Source: Escherichia coli
GTDB lineage: Bacteria; Pseudomonadota; Gammaproteobacteria; Enterobacterales; Enterobacteriaceae
Assembly (NCBI RefSeq): GCF_044324875.1
Contig: NZ_CP172185.1
Length of the DNA stretch: 64,000 nucleotides
Reading direction: 5' to 3' (one strand)
The position numbers and the translations under genes were made by a program. Numbering within the stretch: position 1 is the first letter of the stretch; the number at the start of each line of letters is the position of its first letter. This document shows positions 16,160-56,494 of this stretch, one piece after another. The notes under the pieces were generated by a model. The model did no database searches. It saw only the letters and a list, made by a program, of their open reading frames with translations, and was not told the origin of the DNA.

Positions 16160-16188
16160 AAAAACCCCGCTGCTGCGGGGTTTTTTTT
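16160..16188 (+). terminator. ompA rho-independent terminator
   Basis: AAAAACCCCGC-tgct-GCGGGGTTTTTTTT. Confidence 0.8.
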
Positions 16189-16900
16189 GTGCACAGAAAA
16201 CCCCCAGCTAGGCTGGGGGTTCCGGAAAGCTTTCAGCTTTGAGCCAGTTATTAAAACCCCTTTTGATTTGTTAAAACACCTTGCGGTCTGGCAACTGCAA
16301 GTGTCAAACAAGAAATCAAAAGGGGGTCCCAATGGGGAACGAAAAGAGCTTAGCGCACACCCGATGGAACTGTAAATATCACATAGTATTTGCGCCAAAA
16401 TACCGAAGACAGGTGTTCTACAGAGAGAAGCGTAGAGCAATAGGCTGTATTTTGAGAAAGCTGTGTGAGTGGAAAAGTGTACGGATTCTGGAAGCTGAAT
16501 GCTGTGCAGATCATATCCATATGCTTGTGGAGATCCCGCCCAAAATGAGCGTATCAGGCTTTATGGGATATCTGAAAGGGAAAAGCAGTCTGATGCTTTA
16601 CGAGCAGTTTGGTGATTTGAAATTCAAATACAGGAACAGGGAGTTCTGGTGCAGAGGGTATTACGTCGATACGGTGGGTAAGAACACGGCGAAGATACAG
16701 GATTACATAAAGCACCAGCTTGAAGAGGATAAAATGGGAGAGCAGTTATCGATTCCCTATCCGGGCAGCCCGTTTACGGGCCGTAAGTAACGAAGTTGGA
16801 TGCAAATGTCAGATCGTGTGCGCCTGTTAGGGCGCGGCTGGTAAGAGAGCCTTATAGGCGCATTTGAAAAACCTCCGGCTATGCCGGAGGATATTTATTC
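16189..16900 (+). mobile_element. IS200-family insertion sequence, copy 1 (about 712 bp)
   Basis: Identical to the copies at 48635..49346 and 55755..56466; left end GTGCACAGAAAACCCCCAGCTAGGCTGGGGG hairpin, right end CCTCCGGCTATGCCGGAGGATATTTATTC; single tnpA; no target duplication. Confidence 0.9.
16332..16790 (+). CDS. tnpA: IS200 transposase TnpA (Y1 HUH family)
   Basis: 152-aa product MGNEKSLAHTRWNCKYHIVFAPKYRR...HIHMLVEIPP, with the HxH motif and catalytic Tyr region typical of IS200/IS605 TnpA. Confidence 0.92.
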   Translation: MGNEKSLAHTRWNCKYHIVFAPKYRRQVFYREKRRAIGCILRKLCEWKSVRILEAECCADHIHMLVEIPPKMSVSGFMGYLKGKSSLMLYEQFGDLKFKYRNREFWCRGYYVDTVGKNTAKIQDYIKHQLEEDKMGEQLSIPYPGSPFTGRK

Positions 16901-16931
16901 GTCTTTAGAAAATTGAACTGACTTTCGTCAG

Positions 16932-17384
16932 TTATTCCTTACCCAGCAATGCCTGCAGATCCTGCTTCAAAGAAGACATTTTATTCGCGTATTTCTCTTT
17001 GTTTTCCGCATCTTCAATCAGCTGAACAATCGTTTCAGAAAGCGTTTTACCGCGACGCTGCGCAAGACCAGCCAGACGTTGCCAGACAATAAATTCCAGA
17101 TCGATCGATTTTTTGCGCGTATGCTGGTGTTCCGCATTAAAATGGCGCTTCCGTCTGGCCCGAATGGTTTGCTTCATGCGATTGACCAGTTCCGGATTCA
17201 TATGCTTGTCAATCCAGCCATTTACCAGCACGGGTTCATTTTCCAGCGAGAGCAACACATCGACGGCTTCCTGGGCGGCACTGGCTTCTATGTAACGGGT
17301 GATTAACTCCCCTTCGCGATGCTTCTTCACCAGATACTTCCATTTCCAACCGCTTTCAAGATTTTCAAGTTGTTGATATTTCAT
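16932..17384 (-). CDS. matP: Macrodomain Ter protein MatP
   Basis: 150-aa [38 protein letters not shown]. Confidence 0.9.
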
Positions 17385-17569
17385 AGCGATCTCAATGTTA
17401 CCGTGTAACTCTTTACAGAATATCAGCTTTTTAGGCCAGTGAAGAAAAGAATCTCCATCCTGTGAGCTTTAACGCCCATGCCAGGAGTATTGTCGGTGCT
17501 TTCTACGTGTGCTGCAGTGCCGGTTACGGTATAATCGCGGCTTTGACAACAGACTAAAAAACATCAACT

Positions 17570-19330
17570 TTGACCATTACGAAACTTGCATGGCGTGACC
17601 TGGTTCCTGATACCGATAGCTATCAGGAAATATTTGCTCAGCCACATTTGATTGACGAAAACGATCCTTTATTCAGTGATACTCAACCGCGACTACAATT
17701 TGCGCTGGAGCAGTTGCTGCATACGCGAGCATCCTCCTCTTTTATGCTGGCGAAGGCCCCGGAAGAGTCTGAGTATCTGAATCTTATTGCCGATGCCGCG
17801 CGTGCGCTACAAAGCGATGCAGGCCAACTGGTGGGCGGTCACTATGAGGTTTCCGGGCACACCATCCGCTTACGTAACGCAGTGAGTGCAGATGATAATT
17901 TTGCGACTTTAACGCAAGTTGTCGCTGCCGACTGGGTAGAAGCGGAGCAACTCTTTGGCTGCCTGCGCCAGTTTAATGGCGACATTACCCTGCAGCCAGG
18001 TCTGGTGCATCAGGCAAATGGCGGTATTCTCATCATCTCTTTGCGTACACTGCTGGTGCAACCTCTGCTGTGGATGCGGCTGAAAAATATCGTTAACCGC
18101 GGGCGTTTTGACTGGGTTGCGTTTGATGAGTCGCGCCCTCTCCCCGTCTCTGTGCCTTCGATGCCATTGAAGCTGAAAGTCATTCTGGTAGGCGAACGCG
18201 AATCATTGGCTGATTTCCAGGAGATGGAACCAGAGCTTTCAGAGCAGGCTATTTATAGCGAATTTGAAGATACTCTGCAGATTGTCGATACGGAGTCAGT
18301 AAGCCAGTGGTGTCGCTGGGTAACATTGACCGCAAGACATAATCACTTACCTGCACCGGGAGCGGATGCCTGGCCGGTACTTATCCGCGAAGCAGCCCGC
18401 TACACCGGTGAACAAGAAACACTTCCGCTTAGCCCGCAGTGGATCCTCCGCCAGTGTAAAGAGGTCGCCTCCCTGTGCGATGGCGACACCTTCTCCGGCG
18501 AGCAGATAAACTTAATGCTACAGCAGCGTGAATGGCGCGAAGGTTTCCTCGCTGAACGCATGCAGGATGAGATTCTTCAGGAGCAAATCCTGATTGAAAC
18601 CGAAGGCGAACGCATCGGGCAAATTAACGCCCTTTCGGTCATTGAATTTCCGGGTCATCCACGCGCTTTTGGCGAACCTTCTCGCATTAGCTGCGTTGTG
18701 CATATTGGCGATGGTGAATTCACCGACATCGAACGCAAAGCGGAGCTTGGCGGCAATATCCATGCGAAAGGGATGATGATCATGCAGGCGTTCCTGATGT
18801 CGGAACTACAGCTTGAGCAACAGATCCCCTTCTCAGCATCGCTGACATTTGAGCAGTCATACAGTGAAGTGGATGGCGATAGTGCCTCGATGGCTGAACT
18901 CTGCGCCCTGATAAGCGCCCTCGCCGATGTGCCGGTGAATCAGAGTATCGCTATCACAGGTTCAGTCGATCAGTTCGGTCGTGCCCAGCCGGTCGGTGGT
19001 TTAAATGAGAAAATCGAAGGCTTCTTTGCTATTTGCCAGCAACGTGAGTTAACCGGGAAACAAGGTGTCATTATCCCCACTGCTAACGTTCGCCATTTAA
19101 GTCTTCCCAGTGAACTGTTGAAAGCGGTAGAGGAAGGCAAATTCACCATCTGGGCAGTAGACGATGTGACTGACGCACTGCCGTTATTATTAAATCTGGT
19201 GTGGGATGGCGAAGGCCAAACGACGCTGATGCAAACCATCCAGGAACGTATCGCGCAAGCATCGCAACAGGAAGGACGTCACCGTTTTCCATGGCCATTA
19301 CGTTGGCTGAACTGGTTTATTCCGAACTGA
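17570..19330 (+). CDS. ycbZ: Putative Lon-like protease
   Basis: 586-aa ORF with C-terminal Lon protease S16 domain ([14 protein letters not shown]). Confidence 0.88.
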
Positions 19331-19360
19331 TCGGACTTGTTCAGCGTACACGTGTTAGCT
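19325..19360 (+). promoter_or_regulatory. fabA promoter operators: FadR box plus FabR palindrome
   Basis: AACTGATCGGACTTGTT (FadR consensus-like) overlapping the ycbZ stop, followed by AGCGTACACGTGTTAGCT centred on CACGTG. Confidence 0.6.
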
Positions 19361-19398
19361 ATCCTGCGTGCTTCAATAAAATAAGGCTTACAGAGAAC

Positions 19399-19917
19399 AT
19401 GGTAGATAAACGCGAATCCTATACAAAAGAAGACCTTCTTGCCTCTGGTCGCGGTGAACTGTTTGGCGCTAAAGGTCCGCAATTGCCAGCACCGAACATG
19501 CTGATGATGGACCGTGTGGTCAAAATGACCGAAACGGGTGGTAACTTCGACAAAGGGTATGTTGAAGCAGAACTGGATATCAATCCGGATCTGTGGTTCT
19601 TCGGATGCCACTTCATTGGCGATCCGGTTATGCCGGGATGCCTGGGCCTGGACGCAATGTGGCAGCTGGTAGGGTTCTACCTCGGCTGGCTGGGCGGCGA
19701 AGGTAAAGGCCGCGCGCTGGGCGTTGGCGAAGTGAAATTCACCGGTCAGGTACTGCCGACAGCGAAAAAAGTGACCTACCGTATTCACTTTAAACGCATT
19801 GTTAACCGTCGTCTGATTATGGGCCTGGCGGATGGCGAAGTGCTGGTTGATGGTCGTTTGATCTATACCGCCAGCGACCTGAAAGTCGGTCTGTTCCAGG
19901 ATACGTCTGCCTTCTGA
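19399..19917 (+). CDS. fabA: 3-hydroxydecanoyl-ACP dehydratase/isomerase
   Basis: 172-aa product [23 protein letters not shown]; ORF 19201..19917 is an upstream extension. Confidence 0.93.
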
Positions 19918-19944
19918 TTATAATCAGACATAGTATCAAAAGGC

Positions 19945-19975
19945 GAAACCTCCGCAATGCGGAGGTTTCTTTTTA
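19945..19975. terminator. Bidirectional terminator between fabA and rmf
   Basis: AAACCTCCGC-aat-GCGGAGGTTT with flanking A/T runs. Confidence 0.7.
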
Positions 19976-19986
19976 AAGAGACAGAA

Positions 19987-20154
19987 TCAGGCCATTACTA
20001 CCCTGTCCGCCATGGCTTCTCGCCAGCCTCCCAGCCATTGTGACCTTTGATTCAGCGTCTGATAGGGACACATTTCTTTTGAGCGTCCGGCGATGCCGGC
20101 CTGATAACCACGTTGATGTGCCCGTTCCAGGCGATCTCGTTTTTGTCTCTTCAT
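19987..20154 (-). CDS. rmf: Ribosome modulation factor
   Basis: 55-aa product MKRQKRDRLERAHQRGYQAGIAGRSKEMCPYQ read from the reverse complement; below the ORF-track length cutoff. Confidence 0.85.
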   Translation of the reverse strand: MKRQKRDRLERAHQRGYQAGIAGRSKEMCPYQTLNQRSQWLGGWREAMADRVVMA

Positions 20155-20409
20155 GCCTCGTTTCCCTCATACTGGTTTCTGGTGGAAAAGAAAACAGTGA
20201 TTACTAAATGTGCAATCACAGTTAAGCAATACCGCGAATCATAACTGCCGTCAATGCGCAAAATTCACGCCACTGTCATATTTGTGAGCTACACGGGCAT
20301 GTCGGTTGTACAAAAAATGTGAAGAGGAACAACTTTTTCCGCAAGTTAGAAACAAAAAAACCGCCTCAGGCAACATACCGGAGACGGTTATATTTACAAA
20401 TCTTTATGA

Positions 20410-20973
20410 TTACGGTAGACGCTTTATCTCTTGCGCAATAGAAGCGGCTTCCTGACTCCAGACACTGGCCAGCACTTTAACCATTTCATCGTAACCATCC
20501 TGAGTTTGCACCCCTTCCAGACGGAACGGACGTTTGATCAGTTGTCCCTGGTGGTTCAACAGCCACTCACCACTGACAATGACCTTGCCATCATATCGCC
20601 CGTTAAACTCCGTTACGGTAACATTGAGCGTATCCTGGGCGCTTCCCAGAGGCTGGGAGGCAACCACCCAGCCGGGCAGTTGCGTGCTCAGGTTGGCAAC
20701 CAGAGTGTTGCGCAACTGTTGATCCAACGGGCTGGCCCACAAGTTGTTGTTGGCAATCACATACTTCACATCACTGGTTTGATAAACCACACCATTCCCC
20801 GCCAGATAGTCAGGAACAGTGACCTGCTCTACCCATAACAGGCGATTACCCTGGCTGGCGGTACTTTGTGTACCGCTCTGCACCACAGGTAACTGGTAAT
20901 AGTTTTTATTAATTTCGCCGGAGCTGCATCCGGCCAGCCACAGTGCTGCAATCGTCACTAGCCACTTTTTCAT
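20410..20973 (-). CDS. pqiC: Paraquat-inducible lipoprotein PqiC
   Basis: 187-aa ORF with lipobox LAGC; overlaps pqiB stop by 4 bp. Confidence 0.88.
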   Translation of the reverse strand: MKKWLVTIAALWLAGCSSGEINKNYYQLPVVQSGTQSTASQGNRLLWVEQVTVPDYLAGNGVVYQTSDVKYVIANNNLWASPLDQQLRNTLVANLSTQLPGWVVASQPLGSAQDTLNVTVTEFNGRYDGKVIVSGEWLLNHQGQLIKRPFRLEGVQTQDGYDEMVKVLASVWSQEAASIAQEIKRLP

Positions 20974-22610
20974 TGTTTCGCCCTCTTCGGCTCTGGATCT
21001 TTTTTGTCCTTCGCTTCAAATACCAGCGCGTTACTCTTCTCATTGAGCGTTTTCAGCACCGGTTGCAGTTCTCGCAACACCTGATCAAGGCGCTGCATAT
21101 CCGCCACCATCTTGTTGTAGGCTGCGGAGCCAGGCTGGAAGCCCTGCATGCTGCGATTCAATTCACGCAACGTTGACTGCATATCCGTCGGCAACTGCTG
21201 CATCGACTGGCTGGCGAGGATCTTGTTCATGCTATCCAGCGTCGTTTGCAGGTTTTTCATTGTGCGCTGACTTTCAGAAAGCGTACTGGTTGCCTGTTCA
21301 ATCATCGGATTCAATGGCAGTTTGTTGATCTTATCCAACGCTTCCATCAGTCGTTGCTGGATTTGCGCCAGACCGCCGCTAACGGTCGGGATAATCTGAT
21401 AGCCATTAAATTCACGAATACCGGTTATTGCAGGCGTATTTGGATAGAAATCGAGATCAACATACAGTGCGCCAGTGACCAGGTTTCCGGTTTTCAGCGA
21501 TCCGCGTAAACCACGTTTCAACAATTCGCCAAGGTGCTCAACAACATCCGCATTTTCGCCAAGCTGCATTTTCAGCCGCTCTGGCTCGATACGAATCAGT
21601 ACCGGAATACGGTAATCATCGTTAAATGTCTGACGCATATTCGGCGCAAAGAATGGCACTTTGCTTACGGTACCCAGGCGAATACCCCGGAATTCTACCG
21701 GAGCTCCCGGTTGCAGACCGCGTACCGAATCTTTAAAGAACATCAGATAATCAATGTGATCGGTGTACAACGAATCCTGAATGCTCTTCTGATCATCATA
21801 CAAAACGAAAGCTGTTTTCGGTGCCACTGGCTGCCCTAAATCCAGACCTTCCGGCACATCAAAGCTGACACCGCCACTAAGCAGCGTTGTCAATGAGCCC
21901 ATCTCCACACGCATCCCCGCTGACGTCAGATCAACCGCAATGCCACTATCTTTCCAGAAGCGAACATTGCTGGTCACCAGTCGGTCATAAGGTGCATTGA
22001 TGAACAGTTGATAGCTGATATTGCGTTTTTGCGTATCGAAGGTGCTGGTTTCAACCGAACCTACCCGATAGCCACGGAACAGCACGGGATCTCCTGGCGA
22101 GAGCTGCCCGGCTTTTTTGCTATCGAGAATCACACGGATACCTTTCGCATCAGGCGGGGCCAACGGTGGCGAGTCCAGCAAATCGTATTTATCCATTTTG
22201 CTGCCTTTCGCGCCTGGCTGCAGTTCGATATAAACCCCAGACAGCAGCGTTCCCAGGCCGCTAATCCCTTCTCGACCAATCTGCGGTTTCACCACCCAAA
22301 AGACGGTATCTTTATGCAGCAATTTTTCCATACCGGAATTCAGCCGCGCTTTGATTTCAACGTGCGTCAAATCATCAGCCAGTGTGGCGCTTTCAACCAC
22401 GCCGACGTCAACGCTACGGCTTTTAATGGTGGTTTTACCACCTTCAATTCCTTCCGCATTCGCGGTGATCAGGGTCACTTCCGGCCCCTGATGGCTGTAA
22501 TGATAAAATAGAACCCAGGCCCCAATGAGCGCCGTGACGATAGGAAATATCCACACGGGAGACCAGTTCTTCACTTTCTGGATTTTGGCTTCCCCATTAT
22601 TAGATTCCAT
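20970..22610 (-). CDS. pqiB: MCE-domain intermembrane transport protein PqiB
   Basis: 546-aa product from MESNNGEAKIQKVKNWSPVWIF; ORF 20970..22670 is an upstream extension. Confidence 0.9.
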   Translation of the reverse strand: MESNNGEAKIQKVKNWSPVWIFPIVTALIGAWVLFYHYSHQGPEVTLITANAEGIEGGKTTIKSRSVDVGVVESATLADDLTHVEIKARLNSGMEKLLHKDTVFWVVKPQIGREGISGLGTLLSGVYIELQPGAKGSKMDKYDLLDSPPLAPPDAKGIRVILDSKKAGQLSPGDPVLFRGYRVGSVETSTFDTQKRNISYQLFINAPYDRLVTSNVRFWKDSGIAVDLTSAGMRVEMGSLTTLLSGGVSFDVPEGLDLGQPVAPKTAFVLYDDQKSIQDSLYTDHIDYLMFFKDSVRGLQPGAPVEFRGIRLGTVSKVPFFAPNMRQTFNDDYRIPVLIRIEPERLKMQLGENADVVEHLGELLKRGLRGSLKTGNLVTGALYVDLDFYPNTPAITGIREFNGYQIIPTVSGGLAQIQQRLMEALDKINKLPLNPMIEQATSTLSESQRTMKNLQTTLDSMNKILASQSMQQLPTDMQSTLRELNRSMQGFQPGSAAYNKMVADMQRLDQVLRELQPVLKTLNEKSNALVFEAKDKKDPEPKRAKQ

Positions 22611-22614
22611 ACTG

Positions 22615-23868
22615 TCAGGACTCCTCATGCTCTGATTCAGGTTGACGATCCCACGACAAACGCGGGTCAAACGTCATAGCAGAAAACATTGTCATTATGA
22701 CGACTAAAGCAAACATTAATGCACCCATTGCCGGATAAATACTCATTAAACCTCCCATACGCACCAGCGCCGAGAGCACCGCGATAACGAAAACGTCAAT
22801 CATCGACCAGCGGCCTACAAACTCAACAACTTCATAAATCAAATGCATTCTTTCACTGTCGCGCTTGCCATGCCCTTTGGCATCCCAACACAACCACGCT
22901 ATGGCGATCATCTTTAACGTTGGCACCATAATACTGGCCAGAAAGATAACCGCAGCGACGGGATAAGATCCTTCGCTCCATAACAGGATGACCCCAGCGA
23001 GAATCGTCGATGGCATCTTCGAGCCTAATAAATCCGTCACCATGATGGGCAAAATATTAGCCGGAAGATACAGCATGATGGACGTAACAAGCAGCGCGAG
23101 TGTCCATTGCAGGCTGTTTCTACGTCGAACGTACCCTTTGGTACTACAACGCGGGCACACGGGTTCGTCAGCAGGAAGGATTGCCGTACAACAGGAGCAC
23201 GAACGCAGCCCCTGACGTATCCCCGTGACGCCAGGTTTTAGCGGCTGGCGCAGTTCTGGCATCGGGGCGATATCGTCCCATAACCAGCGACGATCAACGC
23301 ACTGAAAGGCGCGCAGTTGCAGGACACAAAATAAACACCAGGGGAGAAAGCTGCTGCCGACACCAATGCTGCCGTAGGCCATCAGTTTAACGAAACTGAC
23401 CAGCACACCCGCGAGGAAAATCTCCGCCATTCCCCAGGTTTTGAGTTGAAAAAGCACCCGTGCCAGTTGCTCTTTTAAACGGACCGGTAATTCCGCGCGA
23501 TTCACCAGTAACAGAATGGTTATCAGACAAAACGCGGGAACCAGTTGCACAAACAACAGGAAAAAGGTGCCGAGGCTGGCGTAGTCCTCAGAAAAAAGCA
23601 CGCCGGGAATTTCCAGTAATGTAATTTCACTGGTGACTCCCGCAACGTTCATATTCACAAAAGGAAACAAGTTGGACAGCAACAGCATGAACAGTGCAGC
23701 CAACGCATAGGCGGTGGGACGCTGCCGAGGGGCATCCCACGCCACGGTTAACGTTGTGCCACACCGGGGACATGCCGCTTTCTGACCATGCTCAAGGCGC
23801 GGTAACGCCACCAGCATGTCACACTGCGAGCACAGGATGTGCTTCGCGGCATGATGATGTTCGCACAT
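22615..23868 (-). CDS. pqiA: Paraquat-inducible membrane protein PqiA
   Basis: 417-aa ORF, Cys-rich N-terminus followed by multi-pass membrane segments. Confidence 0.9.
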   Translation of the reverse strand: MCEHHHAAKHILCSQCDMLVALPRLEHGQKAACPRCGTTLTVAWDAPRQRPTAYALAALFMLLLSNLFPFVNMNVAGVTSEITLLEIPGVLFSEDYASLGTFFLLFVQLVPAFCLITILLLVNRAELPVRLKEQLARVLFQLKTWGMAEIFLAGVLVSFVKLMAYGSIGVGSSFLPWCLFCVLQLRAFQCVDRRWLWDDIAPMPELRQPLKPGVTGIRQGLRSCSCCTAILPADEPVCPRCSTKGYVRRRNSLQWTLALLVTSIMLYLPANILPIMVTDLLGSKMPSTILAGVILLWSEGSYPVAAVIFLASIMVPTLKMIAIAWLCWDAKGHGKRDSERMHLIYEVVEFVGRWSMIDVFVIAVLSALVRMGGLMSIYPAMGALMFALVVIMTMFSAMTFDPRLSWDRQPESEHEES

Positions 23869-23997
23869 TGGTACTCCTTAATGATGCGCTATTTTACAGA
23901 TGACTAACAAAGTGTTGGTTTTCATGCCTGATAAACCCAGTTCATCAGGCAATTTTACCGTTGTCAGCCGTCTCTGTTTAAATCGACTATTTTGCGA

Positions 23998-30090: not shown

Positions 30091-31101
30091 TTAGATATGG
30101 GTAACGATTTCTTTAATCAGCGGCGGACCTTTAAAAATAAAACCAGAATAAATTTGCACCAGTGATGCCCCCGCAGCAATCTTTTCACGCGCAGCGATAA
30201 CCGAGTCAATGCCGCCAACACCGATGATCGGTAAGCGACCGTTTAATTCCTGTGACAAGCGGCGAATAATTTCTGTGCTTTTTAACTGAAGCGGACGACC
30301 ACTTAAGCCACCGGTTTGATCACAATTTTTCATTCCCTGAACCAGAGAACGATCGAGCGTGGTATTGGTTGCAATAACGCCATCAATATTATGGCGAACT
30401 AAACTATCGGCAACCTGGATCAATTCTTCTTCAGAAAGATCCGGCGCGATCTTCACTGCGATCGGCACATATTTATGGTGCATCGCTTGCAAATCATTTT
30501 GCTTATTTTTAATCGCAGTTAAGAGATCATCCAGCGCTTCACCATATTGCAGTGTGCGTAGTCCTGGAGTATTCGGCGATGAAATATTGATGGCGATATA
30601 TCCCGCATAAGCATAGATTTTTTCCATACAAATCAGATAGTCATCTTTACCCTGCTCCACCGGCGTATCTTTATTTTTGCCGATGTTAATACCCAGGACG
30701 CCATCATAATGGGCTTTTTTTACGTTCTCTACGAGGTTATCAACGCCAAGATTATTAAAGCCCATACGGTTGATCAAACCTTCGGCATCTACCAGACGAA
30801 AGAGACGCGGCTTGTCATTACCTGGCTGTGGACGTGGCGTGACGGTACCGATCTCGATCGATCCAAATCCCATCGCGCCTAACGCGTCAATGCACTCCCC
30901 GTCTTTATCAAGACCGGCTGCCAGACCAAGCGGATTTTTAAACGTCAGGCCCATGCAGTTAACAGGTTTCGCAGGCACTTTCTGCCGCACCAGTGCTTCA
31001 AACGGCGTTCCTGTAATACGGCGTAATTGCTGAAAAGTAAACTCATGAGCGCGCTCTGGATCGAGCTGGAAAAGGGCTTTACGAACGAAGGGGTAGTACA
31101 T
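30091..31101 (-). CDS. pyrD: Dihydroorotate dehydrogenase (quinone)
   Basis: 336-aa product [23 protein letters not shown]; ORF 30091..31128 is an upstream extension. Confidence 0.93.
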
Positions 31102-31211
31102 GAACTCTCCTGGATTCCCGGTGTGCAAACCGGGGGCGTATTATGTGCGAGTTCGGACCAAAAGGGAATTGACCTGTGGCAAAAAAAGCGCAAACGTTTT
31201 CCGAGCCTGTT

Positions 31212-42597: not shown

Positions 42598-42795
42598 ATG
42601 CCGGATGTGGCGCACAAAACCAGCAGTTTCAACGGATTGTAGGCCTGATAAGACGCGTCAAGCGTCGCATCAGGCATTTGGGCACGGCTGCCGGATGCGG
42701 CGTGAACGCCTTATCCAGCCTACAAAACCAGCATTTTCAACGGACTTGTAGGCCTGACAAGACGCGTCAAGCGTCGCATCCGGCATTTTGGCTCA
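42598..42795. repeat. REP/BIME cluster
   Basis: Two near-identical units of about 95 bp (AAAACCAGCAGTTTCAACGGATTGTAGGCCTGATAAGACGCGTCAAGCGTCGCATCAGGCAT and its second copy) plus GCCGGATGCGGCGTGAACGCCTTATCC REP palindromes. Confidence 0.85.
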
Positions 42796-46916: not shown

Positions 46917-47050
46917 CCTTTAATTCCGAAATCTTTCGCTGCATTTGCGAATTCTGCTTGTCTGATTGCAGATGCCAGGTAACATAGGTATCCCCCCATT
47001 TACGGGTGGACAAGTGTTTATTTTTTCCGACTATTAACAGAGAGAATATT

Positions 47051-48451
47051 ATGAGCGTTGTGCCTGTAGCCGACGTACTCCAGGGCCGCGTAGCCGTTGA
47101 CAGCGAAGTCACCGTGCGCGGATGGGTACGTACCCGCCGAGATTCAAAAGCTGGCATCTCCTTCCTCGCCGTTTATGACGGTTCCTGCTTTGATCCTGTA
47201 CAGGCTGTCATCAATAATTCTCTGCCCAATTACAATGAAGACGTCTTGCGTCTGACCACCGGCTGCTCGGTCATTGTGACGGGTAAAGTCGTGGCGTCGC
47301 CGGGCCAGGGGCAACAATTTGAAATTCAGGCCAGCAAGGTTGAAGTTGCTGGTTGGGTTGAAGATCCAGACACTTACCCGATGGCGGCAAAACGCCACAG
47401 CATTGAGTATCTGCGTGAAGTCGCTCACCTGCGTCCGCGCACAAACCTGATTGGTGCCGTCGCGCGCGTTCGCCATACGCTGGCGCAGGCGCTGCATCGC
47501 TTCTTTAACGAGCAGGGATTCTTCTGGGTTTCAACGCCACTGATTACTGCGTCTGATACCGAAGGGGCTGGCGAAATGTTCCGCGTTTCTACGCTGGATC
47601 TGGAAAACCTGCCGCGTAACGATCAGGGCAAAGTGGATTTCGACAAAGACTTCTTTGGTAAAGAGTCTTTCCTGACCGTATCTGGCCAGTTGAACGGCGA
47701 AACCTACGCTTGCGCATTGTCCAAAATTTATACCTTCGGCCCGACTTTCCGTGCTGAAAACTCCAACACCAGCCGTCACCTGGCGGAATTCTGGATGCTG
47801 GAGCCGGAAGTGGCGTTTGCTAACCTGAACGATATTGCGGGTCTGGCTGAAGCCATGCTGAAATATGTCTTCAAAGCGGTTCTCGAAGAACGCGCTGACG
47901 ACATGAAATTCTTCGCTGAACGCGTAGATAAAGATGCCGTTTCACGTCTGGAACGCTTTATTGAGGCCGATTTCGCGCAGGTGGATTACACCGACGCAGT
48001 GACCATTCTCGAAAACTGCGGCAGGAAGTTTGAAAACCCGGTTTACTGGGGCGTCGATCTCTCTTCTGAGCATGAGCGTTATCTGGCGGAAGAACACTTT
48101 AAAGCACCGGTAGTGGTTAAAAACTATCCGAAAGATATTAAAGCGTTCTATATGCGCCTTAACGAAGACGGTAAAACCGTTGCGGCTATGGACGTTCTGG
48201 CTCCGGGCATCGGTGAGATCATTGGTGGCTCCCAGCGTGAAGAGCGTCTGGACGTGCTGGACGAGCGTATGCTGGAAATGGGCCTGAACAAAGAAGATTA
48301 CTGGTGGTATCGCGATCTGCGTCGCTACGGTACTGTTCCGCATTCCGGTTTCGGTCTTGGTTTTGAACGCCTGATTGCTTACGTAACAGGCGTGCAAAAC
48401 GTGCGTGATGTGATTCCGTTCCCACGTACTCCACGTAACGCCAGCTTCTAA
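47051..48451 (+). CDS. asnS: Asparaginyl-tRNA synthetase
   Basis: 466-aa product [25 protein letters not shown]; class II aaRS motifs. Confidence 0.95.
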
Positions 48452-48465
48452 TTTAGCGTCTTCAA

Positions 48466-48494
48466 GAGCCAGCGCCCGCTGGCTCTTTTTTTAT
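48466..48494 (+). terminator. asnS rho-independent terminator
   Basis: AGAGCCAGC-gccc-GCTGGCTCT followed by TTTTTTT. Confidence 0.8.
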
Positions 48495-48562
48495 CCTTTC
48501 TGTCAAGTTATCTGTTTGTTAAGTCAAGCAATCTATTTGCAACCCCACCATAACGATCATCC

Positions 48563-48593
48563 TGTTACGGAATATTACACTGCAACATTTGCG
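48563..48593 (+). promoter_or_regulatory. Distal OmpR-binding site of ompF (F4-like)
   Basis: TGTTACGGAATATTACACTGCAACATTTGCG; it would sit about -380 to -350 from the predicted ompF start site once the 712-bp IS is subtracted. Confidence 0.55.
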
Positions 48594-48634
48594 CACAAAA
48601 AATAATCCGCATTCTTATTGCGGATTAGTTTTTT

Positions 48635-49346
48635 GTGCACAGAAAACCCCCAGCTAGGCTGGGGGTTCCGGAAAGCTTTCAGCTTTGAGCCAGTTATTAA
48701 AACCCCTTTTGATTTGTTAAAACACCTTGCGGTCTGGCAACTGCAAGTGTCAAACAAGAAATCAAAAGGGGGTCCCAATGGGGAACGAAAAGAGCTTAGC
48801 GCACACCCGATGGAACTGTAAATATCACATAGTATTTGCGCCAAAATACCGAAGACAGGTGTTCTACAGAGAGAAGCGTAGAGCAATAGGCTGTATTTTG
48901 AGAAAGCTGTGTGAGTGGAAAAGTGTACGGATTCTGGAAGCTGAATGCTGTGCAGATCATATCCATATGCTTGTGGAGATCCCGCCCAAAATGAGCGTAT
49001 CAGGCTTTATGGGATATCTGAAAGGGAAAAGCAGTCTGATGCTTTACGAGCAGTTTGGTGATTTGAAATTCAAATACAGGAACAGGGAGTTCTGGTGCAG
49101 AGGGTATTACGTCGATACGGTGGGTAAGAACACGGCGAAGATACAGGATTACATAAAGCACCAGCTTGAAGAGGATAAAATGGGAGAGCAGTTATCGATT
49201 CCCTATCCGGGCAGCCCGTTTACGGGCCGTAAGTAACGAAGTTGGATGCAAATGTCAGATCGTGTGCGCCTGTTAGGGCGCGGCTGGTAAGAGAGCCTTA
49301 TAGGCGCATTTGAAAAACCTCCGGCTATGCCGGAGGATATTTATTC
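48635..49346 (+). mobile_element. IS200-family insertion sequence, copy 2, inside the ompF upstream regulatory region
   Basis: Identical to copy 1; left end abuts AATCCGCA-ttcttatt-GCGGATT hairpin plus T-run. Confidence 0.9.
48778..49236 (+). CDS. tnpA: IS200 transposase TnpA
   Basis: Protein identical to the copy-1 TnpA. Confidence 0.92.
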   Translation: MGNEKSLAHTRWNCKYHIVFAPKYRRQVFYREKRRAIGCILRKLCEWKSVRILEAECCADHIHMLVEIPPKMSVSGFMGYLKGKSSLMLYEQFGDLKFKYRNREFWCRGYYVDTVGKNTAKIQDYIKHQLEEDKMGEQLSIPYPGSPFTGRK

Positions 49347-49552
49347 TTAGCTGATAGCACAATTTTCATACTATTTTTTGGCGTTCTGGATGTCTGAACG
49401 AGGATTTAGTGCCAGGTCGATAAAGTTTCCATCAGAAACAAAATTTCCGTTTAGTTAATTTAAATATAATGAAATCATATAAATAGATAAATATTGCTGT
49501 AAATATCATCACGCTTCTATGGAAATATGACGGTGTTCACAAAGTTCCTTAA

Positions 49553-49660
49553 ATTTTACTTTTGGTTACATATTTTTTCTTTTTGAAACCAAACCTTTAT
49601 CTTTGTAGCACTTTCACGGTAGCGAAACGTTAGTTTGAATGGAAAGATGCCTGCAGACAC
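49553..49660 (+). promoter_or_regulatory. ompF proximal OmpR sites (F1-F3) and core promoter
   Basis: TTTTACTTTTGGTTACATATTTTTTCTTTTTGAAACCAAA direct-repeat OmpR half-sites, about 110 bp of leader before the ATG at 49765. Confidence 0.6.
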
Positions 49661-49764
49661 ATAAAGACACCAAACTCTCATCAATAGTTCCGTAAATTTT
49701 TATTGACAGAACTTATTGACGGCAGTGGCAGGTGTCATAAAAAAAACCATGAGGGTAATAAATA

Positions 49765-50853
49765 ATGATGAAGCGCAATATTCTGGCAGTGATCGTCCCT
49801 GCTCTGTTAGTAGCAGGTACTGCAAACGCTGCAGAAATCTATAACAAAGATGGCAACAAAGTAGATCTGTACGGTAAAGCTGTCGGTCTGCATTATTTCT
49901 CCAAGGGTAACGGTGAAAACAGTTACGGTGGCAATGGTGACATGACCTATGCCCGTCTTGGTTTTAAAGGGGAAACTCAAATCAATTCCGATCTGACCGG
50001 TTATGGTCAGTGGGAATATAACTTCCAGGGTAACAACTCTGAAGGCGCTGACGCTCAAACTGGTAACAAAACGCGTCTGGCATTCGCGGGTCTTAAATAC
50101 GCTGACGTTGGTTCTTTCGATTACGGCCGTAACTACGGTGTGGTTTATGATGCACTGGGTTACACCGATATGCTGCCAGAATTTGGTGGTGATACTGCAT
50201 ACAGCGATGACTTCTTCGTTGGTCGTGTTGGCGGCGTTGCTACCTATCGTAACTCCAACTTCTTTGGTCTGGTTGATGGCCTGAACTTCGCTGTTCAGTA
50301 CCTGGGTAAAAATGAGCGTGACACTGCACGCCGCTCTAACGGCGACGGTGTTGGCGGTTCTATCAGCTACGAATACGAAGGCTTTGGTATCGTTGGTGCT
50401 TATGGCGCCGCTGACCGTACCAACCTGCAAGAAGCTCAACCTCTTGGCAACGGTAAAAAAGCTGAACAGTGGGCTACTGGTCTGAAGTATGACGCGAACA
50501 ACATCTACCTGGCAGCGAACTACGGTGAAACCCGTAACGCTACGCCGATCACTAATAAATTTACAAACATCAGCGGCTTCGCCAACAAAACGCAAGACGT
50601 TCTGTTAGTTGCGCAATACCAGTTCGATTTCGGTCTGCGTCCGTCCATCGCTTACACCAAATCTAAAGCGAAAGACGTAGAAGGTATCGGTGATGTTGAT
50701 CTGGTGAACTACTTTGAAGTGGGAGCAACCTACTACTTCAACAAAAACATGTCCACCTATGTTGACTACATCATCAACCAGATCGATTCTGACAACAAAC
50801 TGGGCGTAGGTTCTGACGACACCGTTGCTGTGGGTATCGTTTACCAGTTCTAA
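49765..50853 (+). CDS. ompF: Outer membrane porin OmpF
   Basis: 362-aa ORF, signal peptide [23 protein letters not shown]-terminal VAVGIVYQF. Confidence 0.95.
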
Positions 50854-50879
50854 TAGCACACCTCTTTGTTAAATGCCGA

Positions 50880-50908
50880 AAAAACAGGACTTTGGTCCTG
50901 TTTTTTTT
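50880..50908 (+). terminator. ompF rho-independent terminator
   Basis: AAAACAGGAC-tttg-GTCCTGTTTTTTTT. Confidence 0.8.
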
Positions 50909-51037
50909 ATGCCTTCCAGAGCAATCTCACGTCTTGCAAAAACAGCCTGCGTTTTCATCAGTAATAGTTGGAATTTTGTAAATCTCCCGTTACCCTGATA
51001 GCGGACTTCCCTTCTGTAACCATAATGGAACCTCGTC

Positions 51038-52228
51038 ATGTTTGAGAACATTACCGCCGCTCCTGCCGACCCGATTCTGGGCCTGGCCGATCTGTTTCGT
51101 GCCGATGAACGTCCCGGCAAAATTAACCTCGGGATTGGTGTCTATAAAGATGAGACGGGCAAAACCCCGGTACTGACCAGTGTGAAAAAGGCTGAACAGT
51201 ATCTGCTCGAAAATGAAACCACCAAAAATTACCTCGGCATTGACGGCATCCCTGAATTTGGTCGCTGCACTCAGGAACTGCTGTTTGGTAAAGGTAGCGC
51301 CCTGATCAATGACAAACGTGCTCGCACGGCACAGACTCCGGGTGGCACTGGCGCACTACGCGTGGCTGCCGATTTCCTGGCAAAAAATACCAGCGTTAAG
51401 CGTGTGTGGGTGAGCAACCCAAGCTGGCCGAACCATAAGAGCGTCTTTAACTCTGCAGGTCTGGAAGTTCGTGAATACGCTTATTATGATGCGGAAAATC
51501 ACACCCTTGACTTCGATGCACTGATTAACAGCCTGAACGAAGCTCAGGCTGGCGACGTAGTGCTGTTCCATGGCTGCTGCCATAACCCAACCGGTATCGA
51601 CCCTACGCTGGAACAATGGCAGACACTGGCACAACTTTCCGTTGAGAAAGGCTGGTTACCGCTGTTTGACTTCGCTTACCAGGGTTTTGCCCGTGGTCTG
51701 GAAGAAGATGCTGAAGGACTGCGCGCTTTCGCGGCTATGCATAAAGAGCTGATTGTTGCCAGTTCCTACTCTAAAAACTTTGGCCTGTACAACGAGCGTG
51801 TTGGCGCTTGTACTCTGGTTGCTGCCGACAGTGAAACCGTTGATCGCGCATTCAGCCAAATGAAAGCGGCGATTCGCGCTAACTACTCTAACCCACCAGC
51901 ACACGGCGCTTCTGTTGTTGCCACCATCCTGAGCAACGATGCATTACGTGCGATTTGGGAACAAGAGCTGACTGATATGCGCCAGCGTATTCAGCGTATG
52001 CGTCAGTTGTTCGTCAATACGCTGCAGGAAAAAGGCGCAAACCGCGACTTCAGCTTTATCATCAAACAGAACGGCATGTTCTCCTTCAGTGGTCTGACAA
52101 AAGAACAAGTGCTGCGTCTGCGCGAAGAGTTTGGCGTGTATGCTGTTGCTTCTGGTCGTGTGAACGTAGCCGGGATGACACCAGATAACATGGCTCCGCT
52201 GTGCGAAGCGATTGTGGCAGTGCTGTAA
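51038..52228 (+). CDS. aspC: Aspartate aminotransferase
   Basis: 396-aa [26 protein letters not shown]; PLP-lysine motif SYSKNFGLY. Confidence 0.95.
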
Positions 52229-52240
52229 GCGTTAAAAACA

Positions 52241-52270
52241 ATGAAGCCCGCTTAAAAAGCGGGCTTTTTT
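52241..52270. terminator. Bidirectional terminator between aspC and gloC
   Basis: AAGCCCGC-ttaaaaa-GCGGGCTT with flanking T-run. Confidence 0.75.
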
Positions 52271-52278
52271 ATGCGCCT

Positions 52279-52926
52279 TTACCAGACGGGCATTTCGTCT
52301 TGCAGGAAGGGATTATGCAGGCGCTCATAACCAAGTGTGGATAATGGTCCGTGACCCGGAATAAATGTCACGTCATCCCCCAGTGGCAGCAATTTATCTT
52401 TGATTGAAGAAATCAGTTGATTATGATCGCCACGCGGGAAGTCACTGCGCCCTACTCCACCTTTGAAAATAACATCGCCAGAAATCAGCAGCTTTGCCCG
52501 ATCATCAAAAAATACGACATGACCCGGCGTATGCCCAGGGCAATGTAACACCTGTAAAGCCACATTCCCTATGCTGATGGTATCGCCTTCGTTCAGCCAA
52601 CGATCTGGCGTCAGCGGCTGGCACTCTTCCAGACCAAACATACGACTTTGCGCAGGCAAGCCTTGCAGCCAGAACTCATCTTCTTTTTCCGGGCCAAAAA
52701 CCGGCACGCCGTAATGTTGCGCCAGTTCCGCCGCTGCGCCAACGTGGTCCAGATGACCATGCGTCAGCAGGATCTGCATCAGTGTCAGGCCGCTGGCATC
52801 AACTTCCTGTTTGATTTTTTCCGCATCGCCGCCAGGATCGACCAGTGCGGCCAGTCGGGTTTGTTCACACCAGATCAATGAACAGTTCTGGGAGAATGCG
52901 GTGACCGGAATAATACGATAGTTCAT
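52279..52926 (-). CDS. gloC: Metallo-beta-lactamase fold hydroxyacylglutathione hydrolase
   Basis: 215-aa ORF with THGHLDH metal-binding motif. Confidence 0.88.
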
Positions 52927-52952
52927 ACTGCCCCTGTTTCGTTAAGCGATTG

Positions 52953-53501
52953 CTACCAGTGCCGTGCTGGCCCGGTATCAATATGCACAAAGTTACTACG
53001 TGGGTAATATCCTACACCACCTGCGCGCATAGATAACGCGGCTTTGCGAATATTGCTTAACGCGATACCTTCAATATGGAAATCCATCGCCTGCCCTTTC
53101 GTGTGATAGCTTTTCTTCGCTACTCCACGGCTGCGGGCGCGTAGTTCATTGTTGGTATCAATGGAACGATAACCGGAAATGAGTTGCACCGGTTTGCGGG
53201 TGCCTAACAACCCTTGCAGGCGATACAACTGGTCGAATAATCCTGGGTCGATGGACTTTATTTTGTTCGCGCGGTAATCGCGGAAAAAATGGTTAAGTTT
53301 TGCCAATTCTTCCTGAATATAGCCTCTGCCATCGAAAAACTCCGCTTTGATTGACTCTCCGGTATGAAGATTATTGAGTGTCAAAATGCGCGGGCGTGGG
53401 GTAGAGAGTGTTGCAAACGCAGGGGTCGGCAGGATGGCGGCACCGAGTGCAACGCCACCAAGCGCCAGCAGTTTGCGGCGATTAGCGTCGAATTTGTCCA
53501 T
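52953..53501 (-). CDS. mepK: Peptidoglycan LD-endopeptidase (peptidase M15 family), Tat signal
   Basis: Start at MDKFDANRRKLLALGGVALGAA; ORF 52953..53510. Confidence 0.85.
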   Translation of the reverse strand: MDKFDANRRKLLALGGVALGAAILPTPAFATLSTPRPRILTLNNLHTGESIKAEFFDGRGYIQEELAKLNHFFRDYRANKIKSIDPGLFDQLYRLQGLLGTRKPVQLISGYRSIDTNNELRARSRGVAKKSYHTKGQAMDFHIEGIALSNIRKAALSMRAGGVGYYPRSNFVHIDTGPARHW

Positions 53502-53681
53502 GATAATCAAGTCTACAGGTCAATGTTATCGTTTATATGCACTTCTGGCGCACAAGAGGCACCTTAACCGTCAGTAAAGCTGACGTCAAGATGACTCAAC
53601 CCCAGCAGTGACGGGGGCTGCAGAGAATCGCCCCCGATCATGCTAATTATTACGACAACTGATTTCCCCGAACTGCTTCAT

Positions 53682-55529
53682 TTACCTGATTAATTGTTCC
53701 GCTTTCGATACGATTTGCGAGCTGGATCGCGCAGGCAGATCATAATTGTAAATATCTGTACGATACTGGGTACGACCATCTGCACCAACAAAGGCAGTCA
53801 GGTAGTAGAGATTCACCGGAATCGACTGCCGAATATTGACGTAACGCGTATCGCCCTGCTTCAGCGCATCAGAAATACGTTTGTCATTCCATCCTGCATC
53901 CTGCAACAGCATATTCGCCAGATCAGAAGCTTTATTCACTCGTACACAGCCTGAGCTCAATGCGCGTGTATCACGCTTGAACAGATTGTGGTTCGGCGTG
54001 TCATGCAAATAAATGGCCTCTGAACTCGGCATATTGAATTTATAGCGCCCCAGCGAGTTCCGTGGGCCTGGAGCCTGCTGGAAGCGAAACGGTAAATTCG
54101 AGGCCGTGATTGTAGACCAGTCAACCTGCCATGGGTCAATCGCTTCTCTGCTGTTCCAGCCGCGCATCACCGTATAGCCATGGCTTTCGAGATATCCCGG
54201 ATCGTTGCGCACTTTCGGCAGAATATCTTTGCGTGCCAGAGTTGGTGGTACGTTCCACGGCGGGTTTACCACTACGTTGTTAAGTGCACTGCTCATCATC
54301 GGCGTTTTGCGATCGGGGCGACCGACAATGACTCGCGAATCCAGCACCTGATTGCCGTTCTGATAGTAGACCAGCGAATAGGCCGGAATGTTAACCATGA
54401 TCCCGGTAGAAAGCTCTGTTGGCAGCAAGCGCAATCGCTGGATGTTGAGTGCCAACACGCCAGCACGCTGGGCGGGCGTTACGTTTAACCAGTCACGCGT
54501 TGCCGGGCCAATAGCGCCATCTGCTCCCAATCCTTGCCATGCCTGAAAACGTTTAACGGCTTCCACCAGTTCATTATCGTAGGCGGCACGAACGGCAGGC
54601 GCAGGTTTACTACGAGACGTCGTTTGCTTGTCCATCGGCTTAGTTTCTGCTGTTTCAACAGTAACAGCGGATGGGCTGACTACCGTGTCAGTTGGCGTGT
54701 CATCGCCAGGTAGAGTAATTTTCGGCCCCCCGTCCAACATGCCTGTGCGTTGCAATATTTCGCGCAACGCCGGTACGTCGTTACTCCACTGCCCTGGGCG
54801 CAACGTTGCTTTACCGGTCAGTTGAGGCCACGGTTTGGTGTCACTGAGTAAGGCCAGTAACGATTCATGCATCGCCGCATATTGCGGATGCTGCGGTGCC
54901 AGTCCTGCAACAAACGTCGGCAATTGACCTTTATCCAGCGCCAGCTGCCATTGGTTAATCACCGAAAGCGGCGGCGTTGCAAGCGCATAAGGTTTACTGC
55001 TATATAGCCAGCGAGTGCCTTTGACCGGAATATTTGCAATGAAATGGAGATAGCCCATCATCGCATCAGAGAGCACGACGTCGCGTGCCATCCCGTTAAC
55101 ACCAGGATCGGTCAGTAACTCTACCCATTTATTAAACTGCGGCTGGAAACCGGCAATCGCCACCTCGGCCAGCTGTTGCTGGAAGGCTTTAACAGCATCA
55201 CGGTTTTCCCACATGGGTTGCATATCGCGTGCGGCATACAACAGTTGAAGCTGGTTAAGATAAACCGGCTTGTAACCTGCGGGTAATTGAGATTCGATTT
55301 GCGTGCGGGCTTTTTCTGCCGCACCTTCAGGCAATGGCTGGATCCCCGCCATTATTGCCGTGGCTTGCGCCTGCGGCAGTGCCTCGCCCTGTTCACTGAC
55401 AGCCACCGGGCTGTCGCCAGGGATTACTTCAGGCTCATCGGCCTGCGCATTGAACAGTGGAGCGAATGTTACGGCCAGGCACAAACTGATTGCCGACAGC
55501 CGACGACCACACATCATATTAAGCAACAT
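53682..55529 (-). CDS. ldtD: L,D-transpeptidase LdtD (YcbB)
   Basis: 615-aa ORF with signal peptide, PG-binding domain and YkuD catalytic domain (HDTPNHNLF...SSGCVRV). Confidence 0.92.
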
Positions 55530-55754
55530 CCCTTGCCCCCTGTTTTTATCATACTCTGAATAGCCAGGCTGTTATTTTACGACTTACCTGTACAACGCCA
55601 ATACTCACGAAAGTATGACGAGCAAGCCTGTTACTCATCAGGCTTATCTTCAGTATATAAACGCCGATACGTTTTTACATAACCTAATGTAAAGAAGTTT
55701 AAAGAAAAGCGCGCCGTAATGTGCCACTTTTTTAGTGCAGAAACGGAGTTTTCG

Positions 55755-56466
55755 GAATAAATATCCTCCGGCATAGCCGGAGGTTTTTCAAATGCGCCTA
55801 TAAGGCTCTCTTACCAGCCGCGCCCTAACAGGCGCACACGATCTGACATTTGCATCCAACTTCGTTACTTACGGCCCGTAAACGGGCTGCCCGGATAGGG
55901 AATCGATAACTGCTCTCCCATTTTATCCTCTTCAAGCTGGTGCTTTATGTAATCCTGTATCTTCGCCGTGTTCTTACCCACCGTATCGACGTAATACCCT
56001 CTGCACCAGAACTCCCTGTTCCTGTATTTGAATTTCAAATCACCAAACTGCTCGTAAAGCATCAGACTGCTTTTCCCTTTCAGATATCCCATAAAGCCTG
56101 ATACGCTCATTTTGGGCGGGATCTCCACAAGCATATGGATATGATCTGCACAGCATTCAGCTTCCAGAATCCGTACACTTTTCCACTCACACAGCTTTCT
56201 CAAAATACAGCCTATTGCTCTACGCTTCTCTCTGTAGAACACCTGTCTTCGGTATTTTGGCGCAAATACTATGTGATATTTACAGTTCCATCGGGTGTGC
56301 GCTAAGCTCTTTTCGTTCCCCATTGGGACCCCCTTTTGATTTCTTGTTTGACACTTGCAGTTGCCAGACCGCAAGGTGTTTTAACAAATCAAAAGGGGTT
56401 TTAATAACTGGCTCAAAGCTGAAAGCTTTCCGGAACCCCCAGCCTAGCTGGGGGTTTTCTGTGCAC
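55755..56466 (-). mobile_element. IS200-family insertion sequence, copy 3 (inverted)
   Basis: Reverse complement identical to copies 1 and 2; left end abuts the mukB terminator T-run. Confidence 0.9.
55865..56323 (-). CDS. tnpA: IS200 transposase TnpA
   Basis: Protein identical to the copy-1 and copy-2 TnpA. Confidence 0.92.
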   Translation of the reverse strand: MGNEKSLAHTRWNCKYHIVFAPKYRRQVFYREKRRAIGCILRKLCEWKSVRILEAECCADHIHMLVEIPPKMSVSGFMGYLKGKSSLMLYEQFGDLKFKYRNREFWCRGYYVDTVGKNTAKIQDYIKHQLEEDKMGEQLSIPYPGSPFTGRK

Positions 56467-56494
56467 AAAGAAAAGGCGGCATTGCTGCCGCCTT
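56466..56494 (-). terminator. mukB rho-independent terminator
   Basis: On the minus strand AAGGCGGCAGCAATGCCGCCTT followed by TTCTTT, immediately 3' of the mukB stop. Confidence 0.7.

Follow-up and report, generated by a model that had tools for sequence, protein, structure and literature searches.

We identified three copies of an insertion sequence (IS) of the IS200/IS605 family in a 64,000-nt stretch of Escherichia coli DNA (contig NZ_CP172185.1 of NCBI RefSeq assembly GCF_044324875.1; the whole stretch is referred to here as the window), each situated directly behind a hairpin that resembles an intrinsic transcription terminator. Copy 1 (16189-16899, + strand) is flanked by the ompA terminator and by the 3' end of matP, copy 2 (48635-49345, + strand) occupies the spacer of asnS and ompF, with the ompF start codon (49765) 420 nt further downstream, and copy 3 (55756-56466, - strand) lies between mukB and ldtD. 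A repeat search and a direct comparison that included 60-nt flanks identified a 713-bp block common to all three copies, with 0 differences. The ends of the element proper follow from empty sites in other strains (21F61 for copy 1); it is 711 bp long (GTGCACAG...GGATATTTATT) and 100% identical in 3/3 copies. Each copy encodes an intact 152-amino-acid Y1 HUH transposase (TnpA), with tnpA of copy 1 at 16332-16790 (+ strand) and an identical translation in copy 2 (48778-49236, + strand) and copy 3 (55865-56323, - strand). The interval 16332-16790 is the sole long open reading frame (ORF) in the tnpA frame, and the element carries tnpA only, without tnpB.

TnpA matches the NCBIfam model transpos_IS200 (NF033573) with 145.9 bits (cut-off 55) and aligns with the solved Y1 transposases 2EC2 (Sulfolobus), 2A6M (IS608) and 2XM3 (ISDra2), the HUH and tyrosine motifs of which line up with its catalytic motifs DHIHM and RGYYV. 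The match to REP_Tyr_transpos is weak (31.4 bits, under the family cut-off of 80). A single amino acid separates TnpA from RefSeq WP_000526135.1, 'IS200C family transposase', and equivalent copies in complete E. coli genomes carry the RefSeq label 'IS200/IS605-like element IS200C family transposase'. At the nucleotide level, the element differs at 1-10 of 711 bases from copies in strains E300010, GMF065 and P31_YH1_02.21 and in metagenome contigs. We therefore assign the element to IS200C, a known, tnpA-only insertion sequence of the IS200 group of the IS200/IS605 family; the assignment follows the RefSeq annotation of near-identical copies and not an ISfinder reference sequence. A group IIC intron was ruled out, as the only ORF encodes a Y1 transposase and Rfam reports no group II intron in the window.

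Terminal inverted repeats are absent from the 711-bp element, and subterminal hairpins are found at both ends. The left-end hairpin of copy 1 (16199-16221, + strand; AACCCCCAGC TAG GCTGGGGGTT, preceded by GTGCACAGAA; fold -11.7 kcal/mol) is the first helix of Rfam STnc490. Each copy has a full-length match to the IS200 5' untranslated region (UTR)/art200 region (STnc490, RF01405; 146.4 bits, gathering score 56), which gives three matches in the window (16199-16322, +; 48645-48768, +; 56333-56456, -). At the right end of copy 1 (16872-16899, + strand) a hairpin (CCTCCGGC TAT GCCGGAGG; -10 kcal/mol) is followed by a 9-nt tail (ATATTTATT) that closes the element; the hairpin proper (16872-16890) is terminator-like on both strands in a terminator scan. 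The anatomy is that described for IS200, a nearly dormant element of ~707 bp with a bidirectional terminator hairpin at its left end, a 5'UTR stem in which the Shine-Dalgarno sequence is sequestered and the antisense small RNA art200 (PMC4513863). Salmonella IS200 and E. coli IS200C share the length (~707-711 bp), the single 152-codon tnpA, the left-end terminator hairpin, the sequestering stem, art200/STnc490 and the lack of both inverted repeats and target duplication (PMC4513863). Nothing essential sets the copies in the window apart, other than that the ompA-matP site is unique and the host lineage divergent.

The three insertion sites were compared with the corresponding empty sites in other strains; in the junctions given here a slash marks the insertion point. 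Target 1 is the intrinsic terminator of ompA (16159-16188, + strand; AAAAAACCCCGCTGCTGCGGGGTTTTTTTT), and copy 1 is joined after its T8, 43 nt past the ompA stop codon. The ompA terminator sequence is also present at the empty site of K-12, and strain 21F61 reads GCGGGGTTTTTTTT/CGTCTTTAG, where the window carries 711 bp precisely at the slash. Target 2 (48597-48634, + strand; AAAAAATAATCCGCATTCTTATTGCGGATTAGTTTTTT) is the second hairpin after asnS, ~183 nt past the asnS stop codon; the empty site in K-12 and GMF065 is GCGGATTAGTTTTTT/CTTAGC (also written TTAGTTTTTT/CTTAGC). Target 3 is the mukB terminator (56467-56497, - strand; ATGAAGGCGGCAGCAATGCCGCCTTTTCTTT), with the junction 32 nt past the mukB stop codon. 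The K-12 empty site is GCCGCCTTTTCTTTTT/CCGAAAAC, and K-12 has T5 where the window has T3. Consistent left junctions are thus GCGGGGTTTTTTTT/G for copy 1, GCGGATTAGTTTTTT/G for copy 2 and GCCGCCTTTTCTTT/G for copy 3. In all three cases the left end of the element faces the hairpin, the host hairpin and T-run are left intact, the insertion is base-exact and no target duplication is present. Folded as single-stranded DNA (ssDNA), target hairpins 1, 2 and 3 reach -14.0, -11.8 and -11.8 kcal/mol (z = -6.2, -5.2 and -4.2), and 0/200 shuffles were as stable as the native flank at each of them. Targets 2 and 3 are terminator-like by scan, target 2 on both strands. On the basis of fold, scan and gene position, the targets are classified as intrinsic-terminator-like. 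Weak Rfam matches at the ompA terminator (Leu_leader, istR, RsmY) are below their gathering scores and reflect terminator shape only. That hairpin and T-run belong to the element was ruled out, because the hairpins differ from site to site and exist at the empty sites of K-12 and 21F61.

A first-pass annotation, made from the sequence letters of the window, had already described three identical IS200 copies, each immediately 3' of a hairpin plus T-run with the left end toward the hairpin and without target duplication. All of this holds in the pairwise comparison (0 differences over 711 bp), the folds and the empty sites of K-12, GMF065 and 21F61. The junction strings that it quoted are correct, with the left boundary placed one T too far to the left for copies 2 and 3. 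Its distance from the left end to the tnpA start (143 nt) is right, and that from the end of the stop codon to the right end is 109 nt, not 110. Its description of the surroundings as conserved core chromosome is borne out by the interval 17000-41900, which is contiguous in alignments to 4,026 complete E. coli genomes.

To see whether the association with hairpins is general, junctions of IS200C were collected from metagenome contigs with an exact 42-nt left-end pattern, which gave 90 junctions at 63 distinct sites. The search patterns of this census and of the cross-species census described below are entirely internal to the element, so the flanks cannot be biased by them. Random positions and other TNNTT/G sites on the same contigs served as controls for folding. 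Minimum free energy (MFE) was used as a threshold-free test, beside a strict detector of hairpin plus T-tail that was corrected for A-tract/T-run pairing at bidirectional terminators. The flank base is T at position -1 in 63/63 sites, at -2 in 63/63, at -4 in 56/63 and at -5 in 62/63, while position -3 holds T in 41 of the 63 sites and A in 13. The mean MFE of the 40 nt upstream is -17.5 kcal/mol, compared to -6.4 for random positions and -5.8 for TNNTT/G sites (Mann-Whitney p ~1e-37 to 1e-40), and an MFE of -8 kcal/mol or lower was reached by 63/63 IS200C sites against 32% of random positions and 25% of TNNTT/G sites. Counted from the last G-C pair, insertion took place after 5-10 nt (median 7) in 59 of the 63 sites. 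Upstream of the junction, 53/62 sites have the end of a co-oriented ORF within 250 nt, mostly at 31-62 nt. With regard to a possible bias toward terminators of strongly expressed genes (ompA, ompF, asnS, gnd), the ORFs upstream of the junctions appear to be a mixed set.

The cross-species census used the 17-nt hairpin core CCCCAGCTAGGCTGGGG as query, with one genome per species, and covered at least 120 loci. Nine genomes contained multiple copies: Yersinia pestis (IS1541), Vibrio ruber, three Mailhella, Desulfovibrio, Oxalobacter, a metagenome-assembled genome (MAG) of Peptococcaceae and one of Bacillota. All counts in this census apply to the matches listed. A stable hairpin (-8 kcal/mol or better) is present directly before the element at 78 of 79 distinct junctions in the nine genomes (p = 6e-45). 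The strict detector recognized 81 of all 112 matches (72%), a total in which some are not left ends; its background is 3.3% for random positions and 6.0% for TTTTG sites. For Y. pestis NCTC5923, a stable hairpin lies just upstream of 15/15 distinct junctions and the flank ends in TT in 14/15. These loci agree with an earlier proposal for IS1541: Odaert and co-workers reportedly found terminator-like stem-loops at 8/14 IS1541 sites and proposed them as hot spots (in J Bacteriol, 1998). The association with hairpins, as described in the first-pass annotation for the window, is thus found at 63/63 metagenome sites and 78/79 junctions in nine genomes. Of the two outcomes that this annotation had named as contrary to it, sequence differences between the copies and a lack of association between junctions and hairpin plus T-run, neither was observed. 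Hairpin and T-tail at IS200C-type left junctions are near-universal, both in E. coli populations and across phyla.

Several further features of the family were observed among the same matches. IS200-group elements from Gamma- and Betaproteobacteria, Desulfovibrionaceae, Bacillota, Elusimicrobia and Saccharibacteria MAGs share the core CCCCAGCTAGGCTGGGG without any difference. The CCCCAGCTAGGCTGGGG hairpin of a Ruminococcus MAG (L090-L098) is located at the right end, followed by ATGCTTATT. Head-to-tail junctions between elements (...CCGGAGGATATTTATT/GTGCCCAG) were found in Y. pestis NCTC5923 (L110, L111, L113) and Mailhella massiliensis (L100); either the right end of one copy was used as the target of another, or these are tandem dimers. 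Miniature derivatives that retain only the hairpin are present in Dickeya undicola (L084, ~700-760), L085 and L024. The Dickeya miniature has the structure T6-GTCTATAGAAAAC-hairpin-GTTTTCTATAGAC-A7, in which the hairpin is framed by a left-end start and an inverted left-end start. Two MAG miniatures consist of the left-end start and the hairpin, directly followed by the right-end tail (GATGTTTATT or GATATTTATT).

Taken together, the three sites and the two censuses suggest that the target of the three IS200C copies is a G+C-rich hairpin with a T-rich tail ending in T-N-N-T-T and not just a short word, a reading to which we give a probability of roughly 85%. In the IS200/IS605 family, a TnpA dimer binds the subterminal hairpins of the element, and the cleavage site pairs with a tetranucleotide located just 5' of the hairpin foot; the left-end guide also selects the target, hence insertion occurs 3' of that word without duplication (PMC6006769). 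In such a peel-and-paste cycle, one strand of IS200C would be excised as a circle and pasted into an ssDNA target 3' of a short word, again without duplication. The left end would be joined to the last T of the tail, 5-10 nt past the hairpin, and since this point lies past the T-tail, the host terminator would stay intact upstream of the element. An A-run precedes both hairpins of IS200C (GAAAA-CCCCCAGC at the left end and GAAAAA-CCTCCGGC at the right end), and the right end terminates in TTATT. By analogy with guide and target in IS608, the T-tail could be read through base pairing to the A-run (GAAAA) that precedes the left-end hairpin. With A-run guides, a right end in TTATT and targets in T-N-N-T-T, a T-tail target follows from the family rule.

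What the target hairpin contributes may be explained in two ways. It may, in the reading that we prefer, imitate the right end of the element, a hairpin followed by a 9-nt tail ending in TTATT; this right end is terminator-like by scan and occurs as target in the head-to-tail junctions of Y. pestis and Mailhella. Alternatively, the target hairpin may keep the T-tail exposed in ssDNA. In either case it is an extra requirement beyond the known IS608 model, in which the bound hairpins are those of the element. The hairpin-guided mechanism put forward in the first-pass annotation is supported as far as targeting is concerned, with the caveat that the hairpins bound by TnpA in the IS608 model belong to the element and not to the target.

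IS608 of Helicobacter pylori and ISDra2 of Deinococcus radiodurans have a homologous Y1 transposase, subterminal hairpins, no duplication, a left end that adjoins a short target and a guide tetranucleotide 5' of the hairpin foot that pairs with the target (PMC6006769). They differ in that they carry tnpB and in that their targets are plain words (TTAC, TTGAT) without a known need for a hairpin, whereas the target of IS200C is a T-tail at a fixed position after a hairpin. IS1541 of Y. pestis is a close relative that shares the left-end hairpin core and the hairpin before its junctions (15/15). Its left end begins with GTGCCCAG, compared to GTGCACAG in the window, and its copy number in Yersinia is far higher (PMC4513863). 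RAYT/TnpA-REP proteins and the ISs that target repetitive extragenic palindromic (REP) sequences also represent Y1 enzymes acting on extragenic hairpins with a guide tetranucleotide (PMC6006769); the targets in the window are unique gene terminators and not members of a repeated REP family. Group IIC introns insert just after the stem-loops of Rho-independent terminators or attC sites, at a short T-rich motif (PMC7923331), and with the same outcome, a safe site with the terminator intact. Their machinery of ribozyme and reverse transcriptase is unrelated, which makes the similarity an analogy only.

Both the element and, largely, its site preference are known. A 2025 preprint reports that, among ISs, IS200/IS605 shows the strongest signal of terminator-like sequences immediately upstream of the element, and reads these terminators as a context that limits transposase expression (bioRxiv 10.1101/2025.07.22.666184). 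Apart from this preprint, a full-text literature search found no paper that states a terminator target rule for IS200. Added here are the definition of the target at base level and its near-universality across phyla, neither of which was found in the searched literature, although specialists may well know them.

A number of points weigh against the proposed hairpin-plus-tail target and the recent spread of the three copies. The IS608 model offers no free hairpin-binding site for a target hairpin, and the support consists of comparative sequence analysis throughout. Every variant found combines an A-run guide with a T-run target, so there is no covariation that speaks for guide pairing. The 5' flank of the hairpin is A-rich in just 22/63 targets, which makes the target an incomplete copy of the right-end architecture; a requirement for an A-tract 5' of the target hairpin, that is, a full right-end mimic with its own guide, was ruled out on this count. 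Survivorship must contribute as well, as intragenic insertions are lost and part of the intergenic bias is selection. With regard to the strand used, the GC skew of the window + strand is -0.027. By this measure the active strand, which is the C-rich strand for copies 1 and 2, is the leading-strand template in these two and the lagging-strand template in copy 3 alone. IS608 and ISDra2 prefer the lagging-strand template, opposite to copies 1 and 2. Finally, the mukB site is also filled in other genomes, so copy 3 may have an earlier origin, with gene conversion maintaining its identity to the others; as differences between strains amount to only 1-10/711, gene conversion could also have yielded identical copies in general.

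To assess the age of the insertions, the region was compared in 5,426 complete E. coli genomes. The ompA-matP site is filled in 0/5,426 of these, and the asnS-ompF hairpin site in 3/5,426, with a different junction and with ompF deleted. The mukB left junction of copy 3 occurs in 97/5,426 genomes. Over the 25 kb of 17000-41900, the best identity among the 5,426 genomes is 98.7% (a soil/drain isolate), with 98.3% to typical strains. As no genome exceeds 98.7%, the host represents a divergent Escherichia lineage that is absent from the collection. As a reference for the possibly high density noted in the first-pass annotation (three copies in 40 kb), E. coli genomes with any match to the element have a median of 1-2 matching places, with a maximum of 36. 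At the mukB terminator (window 56467-56471) three junction forms were observed: T3/IS/CCG in the window, T3/IS/TTCCG in GMF065 and T5/IS/CCG in E300010. Judged from these sequences, separate hits within the T-run would explain the three forms more easily than a single ancestral event; they are either independent hits in one T-run or the result of slippage after insertion.

Recent transposition of one active element, as read from the identity of the copies in the first-pass annotation, is plausible, and the copies would then stem from fairly recent hops within the source genome. The 0 differences among the three copies, the unique ompA site and the rare asnS-ompF site fit this reading, and the 97 genomes with a filled mukB site leave the recency of the set unproven. 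The best-surviving alternative, which we nevertheless regard as unlikely, is that the copies, or at least the mukB copy, are ancient, inherited and identical through gene conversion. It is favored by the wide occurrence of the mukB junction, by the near-dormancy of IS200 (PMC4513863) and by the comparison of copy 3 with the mukB copy of GMF065, in which 5/711 bases differ while the flanks differ by 1-1.7%, as would fit shared descent. This alternative is at odds with an ompA site that is filled in no other complete genome and an asnS-ompF hairpin site filled in only 3, with the three junction forms at mukB, which argue for independent hits, and with the lack of any difference over 711 bp between three copies, which is what recent copying predicts.

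Repeated use of terminators by IS200C was also observed elsewhere in this region. In strains E300010 (L001, 1394-2104) and MEW, IS200C is present directly after the asnS terminator itself (GAGCCAGCACCCGCTGGCTCTTTTTTT/; window equivalent 48464-48494). The gene order asnS - IS200C - aspC, with ompF missing, was found in P31_YH1_02.21 (L125, 1356-2066), strain 98205 and OZ121091 (window equivalent 48635-50905). In these three genomes the copy is bordered on the left by the asnS-ompF hairpin and on the right by ompF terminator sequence that begins within the T-run. Based on these flanks, the loss of ompF looks like a recombination deletion between two direct IS200C copies at two terminators. Across strains, five terminator-like hairpins in ~41 kb are occupied by IS200C: ompA, asnS, the asnS-ompF spacer, ompF and mukB.

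Two further readings deserve less credence. In the first, which we consider a rather remote prospect, targeting by IS200-group transposases would be structural: any intrinsic terminator would be read as a mimic of the right end (a hairpin and a tail of ~5-10 nt ending in TT), with capture maybe coupled to transcription termination, where a pausing RNA polymerase would expose the non-template T-tract, and not confined to replication forks. The second, slightly more doubtful still, holds that the single-stranded target is the non-template strand exposed while RNA polymerase pauses on the U-tract and not the lagging-strand template. In its favor, element and terminated gene always have the same orientation, the strand with the T-tail is the non-template strand, and 2/3 copies in the window lie on the leading-strand template, which the replication model disfavors. 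Co-orientation is, however, automatic under any model that needs the T-tail strand, and the skew in the metagenome census points to the lagging-strand template, as for IS608 and ISDra2. In that census the GC skew of the flanks, in element orientation, is positive in 46/52 sites, with coding-strand skew as a confounder, and the upstream skew is +0.039 for ORFs co-oriented with the element compared to 0.000 for opposite ORFs, which is subject to the same confounder. The census skew thus suggests the usual lagging-strand bias, confounded by coding-strand skew.

Least probable, and in our view very improbable, is that IS200C inserts at any short T-rich word and that only the harmless copies after terminators persist: insertions in genes are certainly purged, 53/62 sites are just downstream of a co-oriented ORF, where harmless sites are found, and the 2025 preprint reads the terminator association as a context favoring persistence, but selection would tolerate any intergenic position, whereas the junction is base-fixed where the T-tail ends (5-10 nt from the hairpin in 59/63 sites), a strong hairpin is present at 63/63 sites against ~25% of TNNTT/G sites at equal energy, the strict detector passes 6% of TTTTG sites against 72% of junctions among the matches listed, and the same terminators are used repeatedly in different strains.

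Two of the copies in the window may affect their neighboring genes. The right end of copy 1 (window 16867-16932), read on the bottom strand, is CCTCCGGCATAGCCGGAGG TTTTTC; this is terminator-like and faces matP, the stop codon of which is 32 nt off. Copy 1 thereby gives the convergent gene matP a terminator-like hairpin, having displaced the shared terminator. Copy 2 is located 56-74 nt downstream of CCTGTTACGGAATATTACA (window 48561-48579), a putative match to the distal OmpR site F4 (-380 to -361), which is involved in repression of ompF by looping. If CCTGTTACGGAATATTACA is F4, copy 2 would put 711 bp more between F4 and F1-F3. Other features in the window are a tRNA-Ser(TGA) (3433-3520), a PyrD leader (31096-31169) and a match to the REP-derived naRNA4 (42642-42720).

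For the biology of IS200, the landing rule explains how dozens of harmless copies of a near-dormant element can be carried, as the host terminator remains intact and the element is shielded from read-through; the element also carries its own terminator-like hairpins at both ends. In turn, IS200 junctions mark real terminators. When strains are typed by IS200, repeated use of one terminator can be mistaken for common descent, for which the junction forms at mukB are a caution, and pairs of copies at neighboring terminators can delete the intervening gene, as appears to be the case for ompF in three E. coli genomes. The census yields a sharp, testable definition of the target for a transposase that is hard to study since it is rarely mobile. 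Structural targeting with capture coupled to termination, if true, would make terminators a universal safe harbor across phyla and tie Y1 transposition to gene expression.

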